The notes: a model not told the origin generated them from the letters alone. 64,000 nt of DNA from Patescibacteria group bacterium (GCA_013387205.1 WARV01000010.1:765-64764), one strand, 5' to 3'. Shown: positions 5,135-63,800, counted from the stretch's first letter. A program made the numbers and translations.

Positions 5135-5255
5135 TACCATACTTCTACTAAATACTAAAAGGTACTAAATATACTAAATCACATCAAATATACTTAATTG
5201 ATATCACTGCTAGTATATAGCTTTAGTATATTTAGTATTATTTCGTATTTAGTAG
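5135..5255. repeat. family A intergenic palindromic element (termini ctactaaatactaa / ttagtatttagtag)
   Basis: About 120 bp AT-rich element with perfect 14 bp terminal inverted repeats and internal complementary arms; fills the tkt/upstream-gene intergenic gap. Copies also at 18374, 18789, 19758, 32183 and 63707. Confidence 0.7.
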
Positions 5256-5260
5256 AGCTT

Positions 5261-6931
5261 TTAGTATCCGTTAATCCCAAACATGGATTTGGGCAATTCG
5301 AATTTGGAGATAATCCCCTGGTTTTGCTGGTTTCTTTTTAAAAAGACAATATTATAGCCATCCACGAACACCGGCGCCCATAACGGGTCATGAACCCGGC
5401 TGATTAGAAAGCTCTGCGCCCAAGGGGTAAAATCGCGGTGGGAAAAAATTATGACATTAAAATTTTCTTGTCTTTCCAGTTCCTGCCAGGCCTGCGCGTT
5501 ATCCTGGGCCGGGATATAGATTTTCTGCAAAAAATCCACGGAATAAGCTTCCGGGCGGTTATCAACGAAAACTTTTTCTTTGGGGAATAAATGGAAGATT
5601 AAATAACCGCCAATATCGTAGTCGTTAAAAATAGGGCCTTGAATATTATTTTGTTTGATAAATTCAGCCGAAGCATTCACGTAAGGCATTAAGCCAATTC
5701 CCATAGCCGAAGTCTTCTCGGAAAATTTCAGATAGTCGCGGTAGCCGCTGCCTAAAATAATAAGCAGGCAGATTGCAATAAAATACGCGTGACGAATATC
5801 AAGGGGTATCCTTGATCTGATCAAGGATGCCCCTTGATACAACGCATTGATGTTGTAGGCTAGAATAGGGATAATGAATAACCCGAAAAACGGAAAATTA
5901 CGGATGCCGAACACTGCCATCACCGAAACAATAAAAAAAATGGCAAACAGCGGCCAGGAAAATTTTTTCCTTTGGAAAAATATCACCAAAATAAAACTTA
6001 TAACCCCTATTGCCAGCACTGCTTTGAACAAAGAAAAATTCAACCCGGCCGTGTGGTTAAGCCTTTCCAAAAACCGGACGGACTGGTTTTCAACGACCAA
6101 GTAACCGTAGTTGTTAAAAATCTGCAAAGGATAGAGCGCGCCTTTAATGAAGTTAGGATTAACTAGCGCGGCTAAACCAGAGACTATACCAGTCAGCAAT
6201 AAATTCTTATCAAAAATTTCGTAAAAATCGCGGCCGCGATTTTTACGAAATCGGTTGTCTACCAGAGACCTTGTGGCACTGCTTACAAAAAACACAAAAA
6301 TCAGCAGCAAGCCCATAAAAAACCCGATGTGTAAGTTTACCCAAATAAGCATTAATACTGGCAATAAATACAACCATCGTTTTTTAGTTTTATCCGCGTT
6401 TATATCCGCGGCTGCAGTATCAGATCCGCGTGCAATCTGCGGATTATAATACACCCACAGCACAAAGAAAAATATCCCGGTAAAAAGATAGGTAAACATT
6501 TCCGGGCGCACTTCCGCGCGCGTGGCAAACAATGGCATAACCAAAACACTTGCAGCAATAGCTAAAAGCCAGCCGCCCATCTTTTTTGCCAGGAAAAAAT
6601 ACACGGCAAAAGTACTTATGCCGAGCAGGATGTAAAATGCTGACAGGCCGGAAAATCCCAAAATTTTCCATACCAGGAAAAACACCACCCCGCTCCCCCA
6701 GTGGTGGTTGATAAACGAAAAGCCAGGCTCAGTGTAGGAATAAAAATTTGTCTTAAAGATATTTTGAGAAAAACCGGAAAGTATAATTTCCCCATTCTTG
6801 ATATGCCTGCCCAAATCCGCGGTAGTCAAATCTATCTTCTGGGCAAAATAAAGCCCGCACCAAGACAATAGGATGATGACGCCTAAGATTTTAAGGATAT
6901 TTGATATTATTTTGGTTTTACTATTAGCCAT
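5261..6931 (-). CDS. polytopic membrane protein, glycosyltransferase family 39 / PMT_2 (ArnT-like) candidate
   Basis: 556 aa with many predicted TM helices N-terminally and a soluble C-terminal region. Carries an in-frame 42 bp nested palindrome at 5798..5839. Confidence 0.4.
   Translation of the reverse strand: MANSKTKIISNILKILGVIILLSWCGLYFAQKIDLTTADLGRHIKNGEIILSGFSQNIFKTNFYSYTEPGFSFINHHWGSGVVFFLVWKILGFSGLSAFYILLGISTFAVYFFLAKKMGGWLLAIAASVLVMPLFATRAEVRPEMFTYLFTGIFFFVLWVYYNPQIARGSDTAAADINADKTKKRWLYLLPVLMLIWVNLHIGFFMGLLLIFVFFVSSATRSLVDNRFRKNRGRDFYEIFDKNLLLTGIVSGLAALVNPNFIKGALYPLQIFNNYGYLVVENQSVRFLERLNHTAGLNFSLFKAVLAIGVISFILVIFFQRKKFSWPLFAIFFIVSVMAVFGIRNFPFFGLFIIPILAYNINALYQGASLIRSRIPLDIRHAYFIAICLLIILGSGYRDYLKFSEKTSAMGIGLMPYVNASAEFIKQNNIQGPIFNDYDIGGYLIFHLFPKEKVFVDNRPEAYSVDFLQKIYIPAQDNAQAWQELERQENFNVIIFSHRDFTPWAQSFLISRVHDPLWAPVFVDGYNIVFLKRNQQNQGIISKFELPKSMFGINGY
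5798..5839. repeat. 42 bp nested palindrome inserted in frame in the membrane protein gene
   Basis: Sequence atcaaggggtatccttgatc t gatcaaggatgccccttgata; encodes QGASLIRSRIPLDI. Confidence 0.65.
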
Positions 6932-6940
6932 GCCTGCAAA

Positions 6941-7072
6941 TTTCTAATTGACCTAATTAACCTAATTATTCTAAATAAATCCCAAAACCTAATGCCTAAT
7001 TTAGAAATTGGGAATTGGTGCTTGTTTAGGTTAATTAGAAATTAGAATAATTAGAATAATTTTAAATCCGCC
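6941..7072. repeat. family B intergenic low-complexity hairpin element (ctaatta / taggtta / attagaa words; terminus aattgacctaatta)
   Basis: Built from permuted short words arranged as imperfect inverted halves. Related copies at 43774, 44392, 45900, 48691, 51018, 52668 and 62843. Confidence 0.6.
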
Positions 7073-7129
7073 ATGTCTTCATTGAACATAGTTTATTTTA
7101 CCAAAATATTTTAGTGATGACTAACTTGC

Positions 7130-8326
7130 TTATTTCTTCTTAATTAGCCTGCGTATCTCTTTAACCTTATCTATCTTTTCCCACGGTAATTTAAGGTCAT
7201 TCCTGCCAAAGTGGCCGTAAGCGGCGACTTGACGGTAAATGGGACGGCGCAGACTAAGATTTTTTATTATCATGCCCGGGCGCAAGTCAAAAACCTGCCT
7301 TGTTATGTCCACAATCTTGTCGTCGGAAAAACGGGATGTGCCAAAAGTATCCACACGAACGGATAAAGGCTCAGGCACGCCAATGGCATAAGCAATCTGT
7401 ACTTCGATTTTTTTGGCCAGTCCCGCGGCCACCAAATTCTTTGCCACATAACGGGCCATGTAGCTGCCGCTGCGGTCCACTTTGGACGGATCTTTACCGG
7501 AAAAACATCCGCCACCATGGCGACCTGCCCCGCCATAAGTATCGACAATAATCTTGCGGCCAGTTAAGCCGGTATCACCCTGCGGCCCGCCAATCACGAA
7601 CCTGCCGGTAGAGTTTACCAGAATGCGGGTTTTCTTATCGAGCAATTTTTTTGGAATTACGTATTTAATTACGTGTTTGAAAATTTCATCTTTCAATTTG
7701 GAAGAATCGACTTCCGGATCATGCTGCGCGGCAATTAAAACCGTATGTACCCTTTTGGGCTTATCTCCGTTATATTCCACTGTCACCTGCGATTTGCCGT
7801 CAGGCCTTAAGCCTTTAACAATTCCTTTTTTGCGAACCGCTGCCAAACGCTGGGTCAGTTTATGCGCTAAGACGATAGGCAGAGGCATTAATTCTTTGGT
7901 TTCGTCGGTAGCCAAACCGAACATTAATCCCTGGTCGCCCGCGCCCAAATTTTCCAAATCTTCTTTGACTATTTCCCCGCCCCTGCCTTTAACAAAGCTG
8001 TCCACTCCCATGGCAATATCGCCGGACTGCTCTTTAATGGCCACAACCACACCCGAGGTTTCCCACTGGAAGCCGTATTTTGCGTCAGTATAACCGATAC
8101 CCTTAATCACGCTGCGCGCGATTTTCGGGATATCGACATAAGTTTTAGTAGTCACTTCCCCTGCCACCATACAAACGCCGTTAGTGACCAGCGTTTCCAC
8201 TGCCACGCGCCCGCGGGGGTCGTTTTTTAAAATCTCATCCAAAATAGCGTCTGAAATTTGGTCGCACATCTTGTCCGGATGGCCTTCGGTTACGGATTCC
8301 GAAGTGAACAATTTTAGGTTTGGCAT
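7130..8326 (-). CDS. metK: S-adenosylmethionine synthetase
   Basis: [22 protein letters not shown] and [16 protein letters not shown] motifs. Confidence 0.95.
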
Positions 8327-62836: not shown

Positions 62837-62842
62837 AAATTG

Positions 62843-62972
62843 ACCTAATTATTCTAATTGCTCTAATTAACCTAAATAATGTCTAATCCCCAATTTCTAA
62901 ATTTTGACATTAGGTATTGGGATTTGTTTAGTCCGCCAGCTGGCGGATTAGGTTAATTAGTATAATTAGAAA
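62843..62972. repeat. family B intergenic element
   Basis: aaattgacctaatta terminus and a ccgccagctggcgg core. Confidence 0.6.
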
Positions 62973-62973
62973 T

Positions 62974-63690
62974 TTATTTAATGAGTTCCTTGTCTGCTGC
63001 GGCAATAGTCCTGTCTTTGACTTTTTCGTCGGACACGATGTTTCCGTCGCGGATACGGATTATCCTTTTGGCGTGCTTGGCTGTGTCTGTTTCGTGGGTC
63101 ACCAAAATAATAGTTCGCCCTTCGTCGTTAAGGCGCTGTAAAATACTCATGACAGTATTGCCGGATTTGGAATCCAAATTTCCGGTCGGTTCGTCGGCAA
63201 AAATCACAGCCGGATCATTCACCAGCGCCCTGGCAATAGCCACTCTCTGTTTTTCCCCGCCGGAAATCTGGTTGGTGTAATAACTAAGCCTGTGCGACAA
63301 CCCAACTGCTTCCAAAGCTTTTTTAGCCAGTATCTCATAGTCTTTTTTCTTGCTGTAAATTAACGGCAACTTGACGTTGTCAAGCACTGTGGTGCGCGCC
63401 AATAGGTTAAACGACTGGAACACAAAACCAATGCGCTCGTTACGGAGTTCCGCCAGGTATTCATCATCAAAACTGCCTGTATCCCTGCCTTCAAACTCAT
63501 ACGTGCCGGAAGTTAAGCGGTCCAGAAAACTTAAAACGTGCATTAAGGTTGACTTGCCGCTTCCTGAAGGCCCCATAATGGCGACAAACTCCCCAGACTC
63601 AATTGAAAAAGAAACACCATGCAGGACAGAAGTCACCACATCTTCATTGACATAATCCTTAGTTAAATTTTGTACTTTTATTAGCGCCAT
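62974..63690 (-). CDS. ABC transporter ATP-binding protein (MacB/LolD-like)
   Basis: Walker A GPSGSGKST, signature LSGGEKQR, Walker B IIFADEPT. Confidence 0.9.
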   Translation of the reverse strand: MALIKVQNLTKDYVNEDVVTSVLHGVSFSIESGEFVAIMGPSGSGKSTLMHVLSFLDRLTSGTYEFEGRDTGSFDDEYLAELRNERIGFVFQSFNLLARTTVLDNVKLPLIYSKKKDYEILAKKALEAVGLSHRLSYYTNQISGGEKQRVAIARALVNDPAVIFADEPTGNLDSKSGNTVMSILQRLNDEGRTIILVTHETDTAKHAKRIIRIRDGNIVSDEKVKDRTIAAADKELIK

Positions 63691-63706
63691 ATATTTACTA
63701 ATCCTT

Positions 63707-63800
63707 CTACTAAATGTACTAAAATATCACCAAACATACTTAATTGATATCAGTACTGGTATGAGATTTAGTATATTTCGTATATTTTAGTATTTAGTAG
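63707..63800. repeat. family A palindromic element
   Basis: Termini ctactaaatgtactaa / ttagtatttagtag. Confidence 0.7.

Follow-up and report, generated by a model that had tools for sequence, protein, structure and literature searches.

The intergenic hairpin repeats described here, which we call family A, are on balance probably the gene-less, non-autonomous, MITE/REPIN-like form of a palindromic element, whose candidate partner is a PD-(D/E)XK nuclease enclosed by the same arms in a longer form. In the 64-kb stretch of DNA that was analysed (the window), we confirmed all six copies reported in a first-pass annotation, with matches far above shuffled expectation. A search with a 15-mer terminus allowing up to 3 mismatches gave 19 window matches against 2.26 expected, a number reached in 0 of 100 shuffles, and every match with 0-1 mismatch lay inside the six copies. 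These copies and their surroundings are as follows.

5144..5256, + strand: family-A copy 1, 113 nt, core in "+" orientation; 4 nt past the stop of ORF 5261-6931 (-) and 78 nt from the start of the transketolase gene 2993-5065 (-)
18373..18457, no strand assigned: family-A copy 2, 85 nt, short variant that lacks the 45-nt core; forms the intercistronic spacer of groES and groEL
18788..18900, + strand: family-A copy 3, 113 nt; nearly the entire groES 5'UTR, between the promoter/CIRCE and the ribosome-binding site
18921..18962, - strand: groES promoter (context, outside the element), sigma-70-type TTGACA-18-TAAAAT, 11/12 matches, lying within a perfect CIRCE inverted repeat
19757..19869, - strand: family-A copy 4, 113 nt; matches copy 1 as its reverse complement at 86% identity, between the convergent genes for a methyltransferase, 18956-19747 (+), and a nucleotidyltransferase, 19880-20791 (-)
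32181..32295, - strand: family-A copy 5, 115 nt, core in "-" orientation; between DUF4430 (32300-32701, -) and DUF6580 (31634-32164, -)
63706..63801, + strand: family-A copy 6, 96 nt, left arm one terminal word short; between ORF 63807-63998 (-) and the ABC ATPase gene 62974-63690 (-)

Each window copy is an imperfect palindrome of 85-115 nt with a GC content of 21-26% and termini of the form YY-TCTACTAAATAC...GTATTTAGTAGA-RR, the boundaries being read as TCTAC...GTAGA. The arms consist of 3-5 heptamer words, TAC(T/G)AAA in the left arm and TTT(A/C)GTA in the right one, in agreement with the word-built arms noted in the first-pass annotation. Two of its details had to be corrected: the first copy starts at 5144, 9 nt to the right of the start given at 5135, and the perfect inverted repeats, said to be 14 bp in all copies, range from 10 to 16 nt (12, 12, 12, 15, 16, and 10 nt for copies 1-6). 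An asymmetric core of ~45 nt, absent from copy 2, is common to the other five copies, which are 70-86% identical overall and carry it in both orientations. Only the two arms pair mutually, since each arm is a direct word array without self-complementarity. The T/G word variant, which occurs at position 13 in three window copies, assorts independently between the arms, with 3 G:C pairs against 5.3 expected alongside 26 G.A and 27 T.C combinations. Moreover, we found no compensatory changes in the arms, and no sense-strand stability or G.U bias among 26 copies. As judged from these patterns, the arm words are constrained as sequence and not as pairs.

A typical family-A copy begins 2-6 nt past a stop codon, with a modal distance of 2-4 nt, and ends 7-25 nt ahead of the next start; none of 142 distinct copies lies inside a called ORF. 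The view that the copies almost exactly fill their gaps holds for four of them, which leave 4-17 nt on each side, but not for copy 1, whose gap contains a further 78 nt with an extended -10 (TGGTATAAT) read by eye, or for copy 3, whose gap contains 55 nt carrying the groES promoter and CIRCE operator. Because this promoter lies upstream of copy 3, that copy is transcribed, and because one copy forms the groES 5'UTR and another the groES-groEL spacer, these two are transcribed rather than being terminators. Family-A copies are co-transcribed with flanking genes. An Rfam scan of the window returned two tRNAs only; at the copies no model reached its gathering score, the best being a plant miRNA model with 25 bits against 90. 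Target-site duplications, a point raised in the first-pass annotation, were absent: with four boundary offsets tried, 0/45 copies had matching flanks at k=4-8, and the matches at k=2 (3/45) and k=3 (4/45) occurred only at offset -1 and did not exceed the shuffled null. The YY and RR flanks are an extension of the inverted repeat and not a direct repeat. Of the window ORFs, 60 were scanned, and none had a DDE, Y1, or recombinase domain; no integrase was found in the window, and a profile search of the six-frame translation of all 64 kb yielded no GxxExxY gene.

Family A is not confined to this region but belongs to an element that occurs in a clade of Patescibacteria. Across 37 stretches of GTDB species-representative Patescibacteria MAGs and 90 metagenome stretches, we collected the 142 distinct copies, in all of which the termini TCTAC[T/G]AAATAC recur, an invariance that is partly ascertainment because the retrieval pattern fixed the termini. 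The orthologous groES-groEL site (copy 2) is occupied in 8/8 related genomes, whose four-fold sites are 37-49% identical and hence near saturation. At the groES 5'UTR, four genomes carry family A, two carry a GC-rich element unrelated to it, and two have no element, a pattern of gain or loss at one exact position. The spacer orthologous to that of copy 6 contains family A in the three other related genomes (four loci, L090 and L094 being identical in sequence) and another word family in L008. In the ABC/MacB operon, 0/21 junctions are empty, and all contain some long hairpin of any word family (six genomes, seven loci). Together, retention at groES-groEL and the filled ABC/MacB junctions hint at host-level selection or a very strong site preference; a purely selfish model does not explain either.

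In six genomes (L054, L095, L128, L131, L133, and L145), the same arms enclose a gene for a ~130-aa GxxExxY/PDDEXK_3 nuclease, making up a full-length element of ~0.47-0.54 kb that comprises two arms and this single gene. Screening for orphan termini revealed family-A arms ~470-530 bp apart around an ORF of 130-133 aa in L054 and L095, and a blastn comparison of these two stretches aligned the element itself and nothing else. The enclosed ORF matches PF13366 and TIGR04256 with E-values of 1e-23 to 1e-26 and clears the curated cut-offs (81-93 bits against 22 for Pfam, 81-95 against 35 for NCBIfam). The D...ExK motif (D71, E84, K86) is invariant in 54 homologues, and the AlphaFold model (pLDDT 94) has Cas4, lambda-exonuclease-like proteins, and Hjc as its nearest folds. 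The family-A-armed gene occupies four different junctions (atpD|atpC, pilB|pilC, purF|purN, and the L095 site). It always lies between the arms, which abut its start and stop codons, is co-oriented with its neighbours wherever this is readable (11 distinct gene contexts), and is the only gene ever found between family-A arms. To our knowledge, no biochemical activity has been described for any GxxExxY protein, nor strand-transfer activity for a PD-(D/E)XK nuclease alone.

Several observations connect the nuclease with the arm words and with the short copies. TACTAAA arms accompany every nuclease homologue at 58-100% identity, namely those of the six genomes above; at 45-53% (L134, L150, L148, L141, L137) the arm words are TACGAAC or TACGAAT and the ends CTAC...GTAG; and at ~30% (L080, L049, L069, L120, L078) the words are unrelated, being CACAGAT, CGCTGAT, or ACACGAAT. 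Among these sequences, the arm word changes in step with nuclease divergence, although this co-variation could reflect plain co-inheritance instead of recognition. Long and short forms occupy the same type of site, namely the gap of a few nucleotides that separates a stop codon from the next ribosome-binding site, and the atpD|atpC junction holds a 105-nt short copy in L007 and the long form in L054, L131, and L133. When all 142 copies are ordered by how closely their arms resemble the long element of the 1.2-Mb contig CAYYWQ, the short copies of that genome take ranks 1, 2, 5, 6, and 18 (P ~5e-6). No ORF remnants were recognisable in the loops of short copies. Comparable arrangements are found in cultured bacteria. 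In Prevotella nigrescens, repeats built of ACAAAT words surround a GxxExxY gene, and hairpins made of these words but lacking the gene lie next to it; an 11-nt inverted repeat borders the gene of Treponema saccharophilum, and in Gemmatirosa a CGCGGAT-word hairpin adjoins one. In the cultured Fusobacteria ZRK30, the flanking repeats are direct and not inverted.

Family A shares features with several known systems. Like REPIN/REP-RAYT in Pseudomonas and the BIMEs of E. coli, it consists of short palindromic intergenic repeats in many copies, which fold into ~100-nt hairpins, lie mostly between genes that are co-directional or convergent, and show no target duplication; in both, the presumed mobilising enzyme is encoded by one small gene flanked by the same repeats, and the repeats co-evolve with that gene. 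However, a REP unit is a self-complementary palindrome of 20-40 bp with a 6-13 bp, usually GC-rich stem (PMC3733652), whereas family-A arms are built of 3-5 AT-rich heptamers. In addition, the CTAC...GTAG of family A is paired, stands at the outer end, and, having the body on its 3' side, is of the opposite polarity to the REP tag, and the associated gene lies inside the hairpin loop and encodes a ~130-aa PD-(D/E)XK GxxExxY nuclease instead of a Y1/HUH transposase. With no Y1 transposase among the 60 ORFs scanned in the window either, the analogy with REP elements and a RAYT partner put forward in the first-pass annotation is not sustained. With MITEs of DDE insertion sequences, Correia/nemis, and ERIC, family A has in common a size of 85-150 bp, terminal inverted repeats, intergenic location, co-transcription, long and short forms with common ends, and the ability of other small repeats to nest inside. 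It differs from them in lacking a TA or other target duplication and a DDE transposase, in having arms of repeated heptamers, and in keeping its termini across genomes with saturated synonymous sites. Correia and ERIC RNA hairpins are substrates of RNase III or RNase E, and by analogy those of family A may possibly be as well. Longer elements with the same ends, as expected for a MITE, are present in six instances, but they encode a PD-(D/E)XK nuclease and not a known transposase.

Integron attC sites and Vibrio cholerae repeats are also imperfect palindromes (60-140 bp) that directly follow successive co-directional ORFs, and they share with family A conserved termini, a variable centre, and retained unpaired positions. 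We rejected the identification of family A as attC on the basis of its termini (TCTACTAAATAC / GTATTTAGTAGA), the lack of an RYYYAAC...GTTRRRY core, and the lack of an integrase in the window; the copies flank housekeeping genes, ~10 kb apart and in both orientations, in contrast to an array of co-oriented cassettes. Rpn (YhgA-like, Transposase_31) and TnsA, nucleases of the PD-(D/E)XK type that stimulate recombination or cleave transposon ends, provide a precedent linking this fold to DNA rearrangement, although they belong to different Pfam families from the GxxExxY nuclease and are much larger proteins. We know of no word-built flanking inverted repeats around Rpn or TnsA, and of no non-autonomous hairpin derivatives described for them.

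The nuclease gene could instead have homed into pre-existing hairpins, which would reverse the direction of derivation. On this account, which we regard as rather unlikely, the gene is a passenger resembling a free-standing homing endonuclease gene, and the hairpins exist in their own right, either as elements independent of it or as structures of the host; the nuclease would cut intact hairpins belonging to one word family and insert a copy of its gene into the loop by break repair, so that the short hairpins are targets and not derivatives. The constant position of the gene between arms that abut its start and stop codons would fit, as would the short and long states of the atpD|atpC site. 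With 390 bp between the arms, a recognition site of the hairpin type would be lost, as happens in classical homing, and the window contains comEC and dprA, so incoming DNA could supply templates. Free-standing homing genes, such as phage seg/mob and the PD-(D/E)XK enzyme I-Ssp6803I, are likewise small genes wedged between conserved housekeeping genes, without an obvious promoter of their own and present or absent between related genomes, and they too are co-oriented with the host operon, as the GxxExxY gene is in 11/11 contexts read. They nevertheless have neither flanking inverted word arrays nor >100 gene-less hairpins at unrelated sites. Homing leaves the spread of the hairpin to >100 sites in many genomes unexplained, and it would be expected to fill its targets if efficient, whereas long forms are rare compared with short ones. 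The tracking of short-copy arm details with the long element of the same genome is compatible with trans-mobilisation as well.

The hairpins may alternatively be a module recruited by the host, acting as protective 5' or 3' stems, RNase III sites, cistron insulators, or DNA-level protein-binding arrays, with mobility secondary or extinct. The positions of copies 2 and 3 in the groESL operon speak for such a role, together with the 8/8 occupancy of the groES-groEL site despite near-saturated four-fold sites, the hairpins at 21/21 ABC/MacB junctions, and the long hairpin in most window gaps > ~60 nt, though several gaps (e.g. 8542-8600, 9147-9234, and 23408-23502) fold weakly. We consider it distinctly unlikely as the main explanation: the sense strand is no stabler than the antisense strand, G.U is not enriched, and mismatches at the variable word position are as frequent as independence predicts, without compensation. 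Furthermore, word families swap at orthologous sites, the groES 5'UTR is empty in two genomes, copies lie in mixed orientation, and the nuclease gene association is left unexplained. A classical origin, either as a DDE insertion sequence shortened by deletion or as REP doublets moved by a RAYT (Y1/HUH) encoded elsewhere, would account for the 85-115 nt size, terminal inverted repeats, intergenic sites, and many copies, and the CTAC/GTAG of the termini recalls the REP GTAG tag. It is nonetheless very improbable given the lack of target-site duplication (k=2-8, 45 copies), the direct word arrays in place of self-complementary REP units, a GTAG that is base-paired at the 3' side of the arm instead of being a 5' unpaired tag, the absence of DDE, Y1, or recombinase domains from the scanned ORFs, and a PD-(D/E)XK nuclease as the sole gene between the arms. 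The terminator module offered in the first-pass annotation, in the form of bidirectional intrinsic terminators, has hardly any probability left. Palindromic hairpins directly past stop codons, one of them between convergent genes, would suit it, but the stems are AT-rich, mismatched, and without a U-tract, copies stand between promoter and gene and inside the groESL operon, and a terminator scan of 18200-20000 reported none at the copies. The genome appears to contain GC-rich hairpins followed by T runs, as after groEL at ~16610-16650 (read by eye from the fold).

We favour family A as the gene-less form of the nuclease-bearing element, although the want of a GxxExxY gene in the window, the loops free of recognisable ORF remnants, and the direct repeats in ZRK30 weigh against this reading. 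The MITE-like, self-propagating half of the first-pass proposal is supported by conserved termini in many genomes, presence or absence at one precise point of the groES 5'UTR, lineage-specific detail common to the copies within a genome, and the gene-bearing form with the same arms. Family A may be mobilised by the GxxExxY nuclease, which would recognise the arm words as sequence, probably as an oligomer bridging both arms or on an extruded cruciform, and would cut at or near the CTAC/GTAG ends. Repair or rejoining of the break could then copy the element, move it, or convert one copy by another; in this way gene-less copies would spread and become homogenised through an enzyme acting in trans. 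The hairpins formed in RNA, whether in 5'UTRs or between cistrons, would be by-products, and the cell may have co-opted some of them, the groES-groEL copy for example. The long form supplies an enzyme candidate, open to testing, for a class of bacterial repeat that usually lacks one.

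The window holds six copies of the family A hairpin repeat, as the first-pass annotation had claimed; site reading, repeat finding and alignment agreed on all six and gave their exact boundaries:

5144-5256, copy 1
18373-18457, copy 2, the groES-groEL spacer
18788-18900, copy 3, in the groES 5'UTR
19757-19869, copy 4
32181-32295, copy 5
63706-63801, copy 6, at an ABC/MacB operon site

All window copies start with TCTACTAAA and finish with TTTAGTAGA. A window scan for the terminal 15-mer, allowing at most 3 mismatches, gave 19 matches against 2.26 expected, a number reached in 0 of 100 shuffles. 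The perfect 14 bp terminal inverted repeat first ascribed to every copy did not hold up, the perfect lengths being 12, 12, 12, 15, 16 and 10 nt. The arms are arrays of the heptamer word TACTAAA or its variant TACGAAA, read in the right arm as TTTAGTA or TTTCGTA. Five copies have in common an asymmetric core of ~45 nt (70-86% identity; three in plus and two in minus orientation), which is missing from the groES-groEL copy in the alignment. Directly left of copy 1, positions 5100-5143 read TTTCTACGAACTAACACCTCTACCATACT, containing the TACGAAC-family terminal word TCTACGAAC; this stretch may be a remnant of another element's end.

Pfam searches of 60 window ORFs identified housekeeping genes (transketolase, metK, groES/groEL, ftsA/Z, topA, comEC, dprA and others) and no transposase or recombinase. 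The sole mobile-type enzyme among these ORFs was a reverse transcriptase (37983-39002, minus strand; RVT_1, 339 aa), with small upstream ORFs at 38981-39178 and 39213-39650, which may represent a diversity-generating retroelement or a retron. Two genes for DNA uptake and processing are present, comEC (28212-29675, minus strand) and dprA (51563-52669, plus strand); given these, incoming DNA could provide templates by which the elements would spread in a homing-type manner.

A perfect CIRCE operator with a TTGACA-18-TAAAAT promoter lies just upstream of copy 3 (18962-18921, minus strand), so that copy 3 is essentially the entire groES 5'UTR, and copy 2 makes up the groES-groEL spacer. Both copies are thus transcribed and cannot be efficient terminators. 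A GC-rich hairpin followed by a T run stands after groEL, at ~16610-16650 (fold read by eye, not from a terminator scan). Within the family A element we found only weak promoter matches, the groES promoter being outside it; divergent gene pairs with an element as sole spacer were considered as a sign of promoter function and set aside, since the candidates depend on doubtful ORF calls. Just after the element (18357-18372 and 18773-18787), the ribosome-binding site sits in the loop of a mini-hairpin. Compared upstream of groES/groEL in the window and in L001, L033, L070, L117 and L014 (L-numbers denote loci from other genomes or metagenomes), this mini-hairpin showed compensatory changes (ATTTC-GGA-GAAAT, GTTTC-GGA-GAAAC, ATTTTAC-GGA-GTAAAAT).

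Scanned with an exact pattern, a set of one genome per GTDB species yielded 37 stretches, nearly all from ~15 MAGs of Patescibacteria (labels Doudnabacteria, 'Saccharibacteria' or Patescibacteria group), with one contig binned as Bacteroidia. The family-A-like copy on this 10-kb contig (L017 3503-3590; JANWJV010000132.1) may reflect mis-binning or cross-phylum transfer. A metagenome scan returned 90 stretches with family A, and viral contigs held no copy. In total, ~0.98 Mb of examined sequence contained 142 distinct copies, mostly 80-110 nt long. Arms and termini are common to the window and the other genomes, and the window's core is not; because termini were fixed by the retrieval pattern, their invariance is partly built in. 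With genomes that are all MAGs or contigs and crude longest-ORF gene calls, 0 of the 142 copies fell inside a called ORF, and 82% of 127 classifiable copies had co-directional gene neighbours, where the background is 75%. Copies most often begin 2-4 nt after the preceding stop codon, and the next start is mostly 7-25 nt beyond their end. We found no target-site duplication at family A copies; their flanks follow the pattern YY-TCTAC...GTAGA-RR, an extension of the inverted repeat. Rfam searches in gathering and E-value modes returned nothing relevant. The TACGAAA variant was modestly biased to the upstream side (34 vs 15, p = 0.009), a polarity on which we do not build, since copies at orthologous sites do not count as independent observations.

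When every locus was screened for termini lacking a partner in the nearest 170 nt, two pairs of such termini turned up ~470-530 bp apart, in L054 and L095, each enclosing an ORF of 130-133 aa. By blastn, the alignment between the two loci is limited to this long form of the element (71.7% identity). The encoded protein scores well over the curated cut-offs of PF13366 (PDDEXK_3) and TIGR04256 ('GxxExxY protein'), and residues D71, E84 and K86, the PD-(D/E)XK motif, are invariant among 54 homologues. Its AlphaFold model (pLDDT 94) is nearest among solved folds to Cas4, lambda-exonuclease-like nucleases, MGME1 and the archaeal Holliday-junction resolvase Hjc; no solved structure matched the nuclease by sequence. 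A survey of PD-(D/E)XK enzymes lists the function of the GxxExxY family as unknown. The family comprises 16,923 cluster representatives at E<=1e-3 (50%-identity clusters), many of which (homologues P0102, P0105, P0115 and others) are ~265 aa long with two matched stretches, a length and layout that suggest tandem fusions of two nuclease domains.

The 64-kb window itself contains no GxxExxY gene. Elsewhere, family-A-armed nuclease genes occupy four junctions (atpD-atpC, pilB-pilC, purF-purN and the L095 site). In several cases the arms abut the nuclease start and stop codons, and the gene is co-oriented with its neighbours wherever this could be read (11 distinct contexts). L131 (5104-5382) and L133 (5840-6082) have small GIY-YIG domain ORFs of 80-92 aa close to the atp operon; these may be another free-standing nuclease gene.

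Across GxxExxY loci, arm words co-vary with nuclease identity.

Arm words of GxxExxY loci by identity to the L054 protein (values in the order of the loci)
100, 77, 73, 65, 61, 58%: L054, L095, L128, L131, L133, L145; TACTAAA, with TCTACTAAATAC termini
53, 52, 51, 47, 45%: L134, L150, L148, L141 (a Bacteroidota MAG), L137; TACGAAC/TACGAAT, ends still CTAC...GTAG
~30%: L080, L049, L069, L120, L078; CACAGAT, CGCTGAT or ACACGAAT arms

Short and long forms also meet at one shared site and within one genome. The atpD-atpC junction carries a 105-nt gene-less family A copy in L007 and the long form in L131, L133 and L054. On the 1.2-Mb contig CAYYWQ, arm similarity to the genome's own long element places the short copies at ranks 1, 2, 5, 6 and 18 of 142, and they have an odd third word in common with it; four of five would reach the top six by chance with a probability of ~5e-6. 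The loops of short copies held only chance-level matches of 12-15 nt to the nuclease ORF. Together, these results demonstrate a physical and evolutionary association of family A arms with the GxxExxY nuclease.

The arrangement recurs beyond Patescibacteria. Cultured Prevotella nigrescens carries a GxxExxY gene between inverted repeats of ACAAAT words, with gene-less hairpins of the same word beside it, and in Treponema saccharophilum an 11-nt inverted repeat brackets the gene. The GxxExxY gene of Gemmatirosa has a CGCGGAT-word hairpin after it, and the same word occurs in window hairpins and direct arrays. A copy on a Fusobacteria plasmid has direct, not inverted, repeats, so the inverted-repeat rule is not absolute.

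We also compared sites across related genomes. The window's GroEL had no exact database match, and a metagenome search with the protein of 19880-20791 found no close relatives; all related loci are 65-79% identical to the window in DNA, and four-fold degenerate sites of groEL are 37-49% identical between related genomes. Fixed points show gain, loss and replacement, and also a striking persistence of 'some hairpin'.

Occupancy of orthologous sites
groES-groEL spacer: family A in the window, L014, L027, L033, L040, L070 and L117; diverged variant in L001; 8 of 8 filled
groES 5'UTR, just after a conserved ATTAAT: family A in four genomes; unrelated GC-rich element in two; empty in two
ABC/MacB operon: long hairpin at 21 of 21 junctions (six genomes, seven loci); word family varies by genome
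Copy 6 site: family A in the window and three other related genomes; ATCCGCG-word hairpin in L008

L033 was retrieved via other copies, so the exact termini of its groES-groEL copy are free of retrieval bias. Between orthologous copies, word number changes symmetrically (4+4 vs 5+5), which keeps the palindromic layout.

Family A is one of several word families in the window, where most gaps over ~60 nt hold a long hairpin of short words; some gaps, those at 8542-8600, 9147-9234 and 23408-23502 among them, fold only weakly. Family B hairpins, built of 9-nt words CTAATT(A/G)(A/T)(C/T) around inner shells made from different words, fill intergenic gaps in the manner of family A, and the orthologous ABC-MacB spacer of L099 holds family B as well. 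Further hairpins use TACGAAG/TTCGTAA, ATCTGTA/GATTACGGA, CCGAATGCCCC, CGCAGAT/CACAGAT, TCTAAAT and CACTAAT. Some such words match those in the arms around GxxExxY genes of greater divergence, namely CACAGAT (L080) and TACGAAx (L134, L148). Direct, non-hairpin arrays of ATCCGCG/ATCTGCG-type words stand at gene 3' ends beside GC-rich hairpins; this word forms hairpins in L008 and adjoins the GxxExxY gene in Gemmatirosa. A small GC-rich hairpin, TCCGCCAGCTGGCGGA, and its relatives are nested in other hairpins, including family A arms in other genomes. Hairpins seem to be favoured targets for the insertion of further hairpins. Finally, PaaX_M/Cas2-like genes of ~180 aa each lie between two copies of a near-perfect palindrome of 34-38 bp with a GC-rich centre (GAGCGATCGCTC, GAGCGGCCGCTC, ACGGCCGT). 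This cassette is absent from the orthologous nusB junction of L033 and is itself an extra insert in L065; it has the look of another type of small mobile cassette.

Other repeats and cassettes (window positions unless a locus is named)
Family B: 6932-7129; 43765-43906; 44390-44540; 48680-48911; 52666-52900; 62829-62974
Further word hairpins: 1130-1245; 10070-10102; 21231-21307; 54147-54220; 42736-42813; 61497-61574; 43650-43720; 45894-46047; 20792-20881; 32702-32860
Direct word arrays: 16572-16600; 34330-34346; 40080-40108; 50455-50484
TCCGCCAGCTGGCGGA-type hairpins: ~1215; 48860; 52701; 62930; L031 7744-7869; L027 6466-6579
PaaX_M gene 13127-13681, minus strand: palindromes 13080-13116 and 13703-13739
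PaaX_M gene 29713-30261, minus strand: palindromes 29680-29713 and 30283-30316
PaaX_M cassette in L065: 6628-7309

The reading best supported by these sequence comparisons is that the GxxExxY nuclease would be the partner of a minimal palindromic element and that family A would be the non-autonomous version of this element. One main rival holds that the host retains the hairpins for a role at the mRNA or DNA level, which would explain the universal occupancy of some junctions; strand and covariation tests did not favour it. When 26 copies were folded as the transcribed and the opposite strand, the sense strand had no advantage (11 vs 15; Wilcoxon p = 0.18) and was not enriched in G.U pairs (36 vs 54), so that neither folding energy nor G.U counts revealed a bias expected of RNA-level selection. 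At the variable word position, T or G on the left assorted independently of A or C on the right (T:A 108, T.C 27, G.A 26), and G:C pairs numbered 3 against 5.3 expected, with no compensatory change at this position. Independent assortment and the lack of strand bias indicate that the words are conserved as sequence, not as base pairs, a pattern that points to a protein which recognises them, not to selection on an RNA helix.

The other main rival takes the nuclease gene as a homing passenger that targets pre-existing hairpins. Neither rival and the partner-nuclease reading are mutually exclusive. Tested against the defining features of the REP/REPIN, DDE-type MITE, terminator and attC classes, family A did not qualify for membership in any of them. 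Under the partner-nuclease reading, the enzyme would read the arm words, cut the element ends and thereby move or convert copies, within an element of ~0.5 kb made of two inverted, lineage-specific heptamer arrays around one 130-aa gene. Family A and its nuclease resemble the REPIN-RAYT system but differ in both enzyme superfamily and repeat structure. More broadly, we tentatively propose, as a real possibility that falls a little short of probable, that GxxExxY/PDDEXK_3 proteins serve a new class of minimal palindromic elements as mobilising or homing nucleases, and that the gene-less derivatives of these elements are the junction-filling word hairpins of this Patescibacteria clade. A limited literature check found no published link of GxxExxY/PDDEXK_3 or Patescibacteria to such repeats.

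No enzyme is known for many of the hairpin repeats of bacteria, ERIC and CGTC-type REPs among them; the comparative data give a specific candidate for orphan hairpin repeats and a first functional hypothesis for the large GxxExxY family. If true, the proposal would provide an analogue of REPIN-RAYT on a different enzyme superfamily, and could explain further 'orphan' repeats built of words or heptamers. Should the nuclease read heptamers, it would be a compact sequence-specific DNA-binding or cutting module, of possible value as a tool, whose specificity is legible from its own flanks. Experiments are within reach through cultured hosts that share the arrangement (Prevotella nigrescens, Treponema saccharophilum). 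The proposal would also explain why long hairpins stand at most gene junctions in the small genomes of this clade, including junctions within essential operons (groESL, atp, pil and pur, for example).
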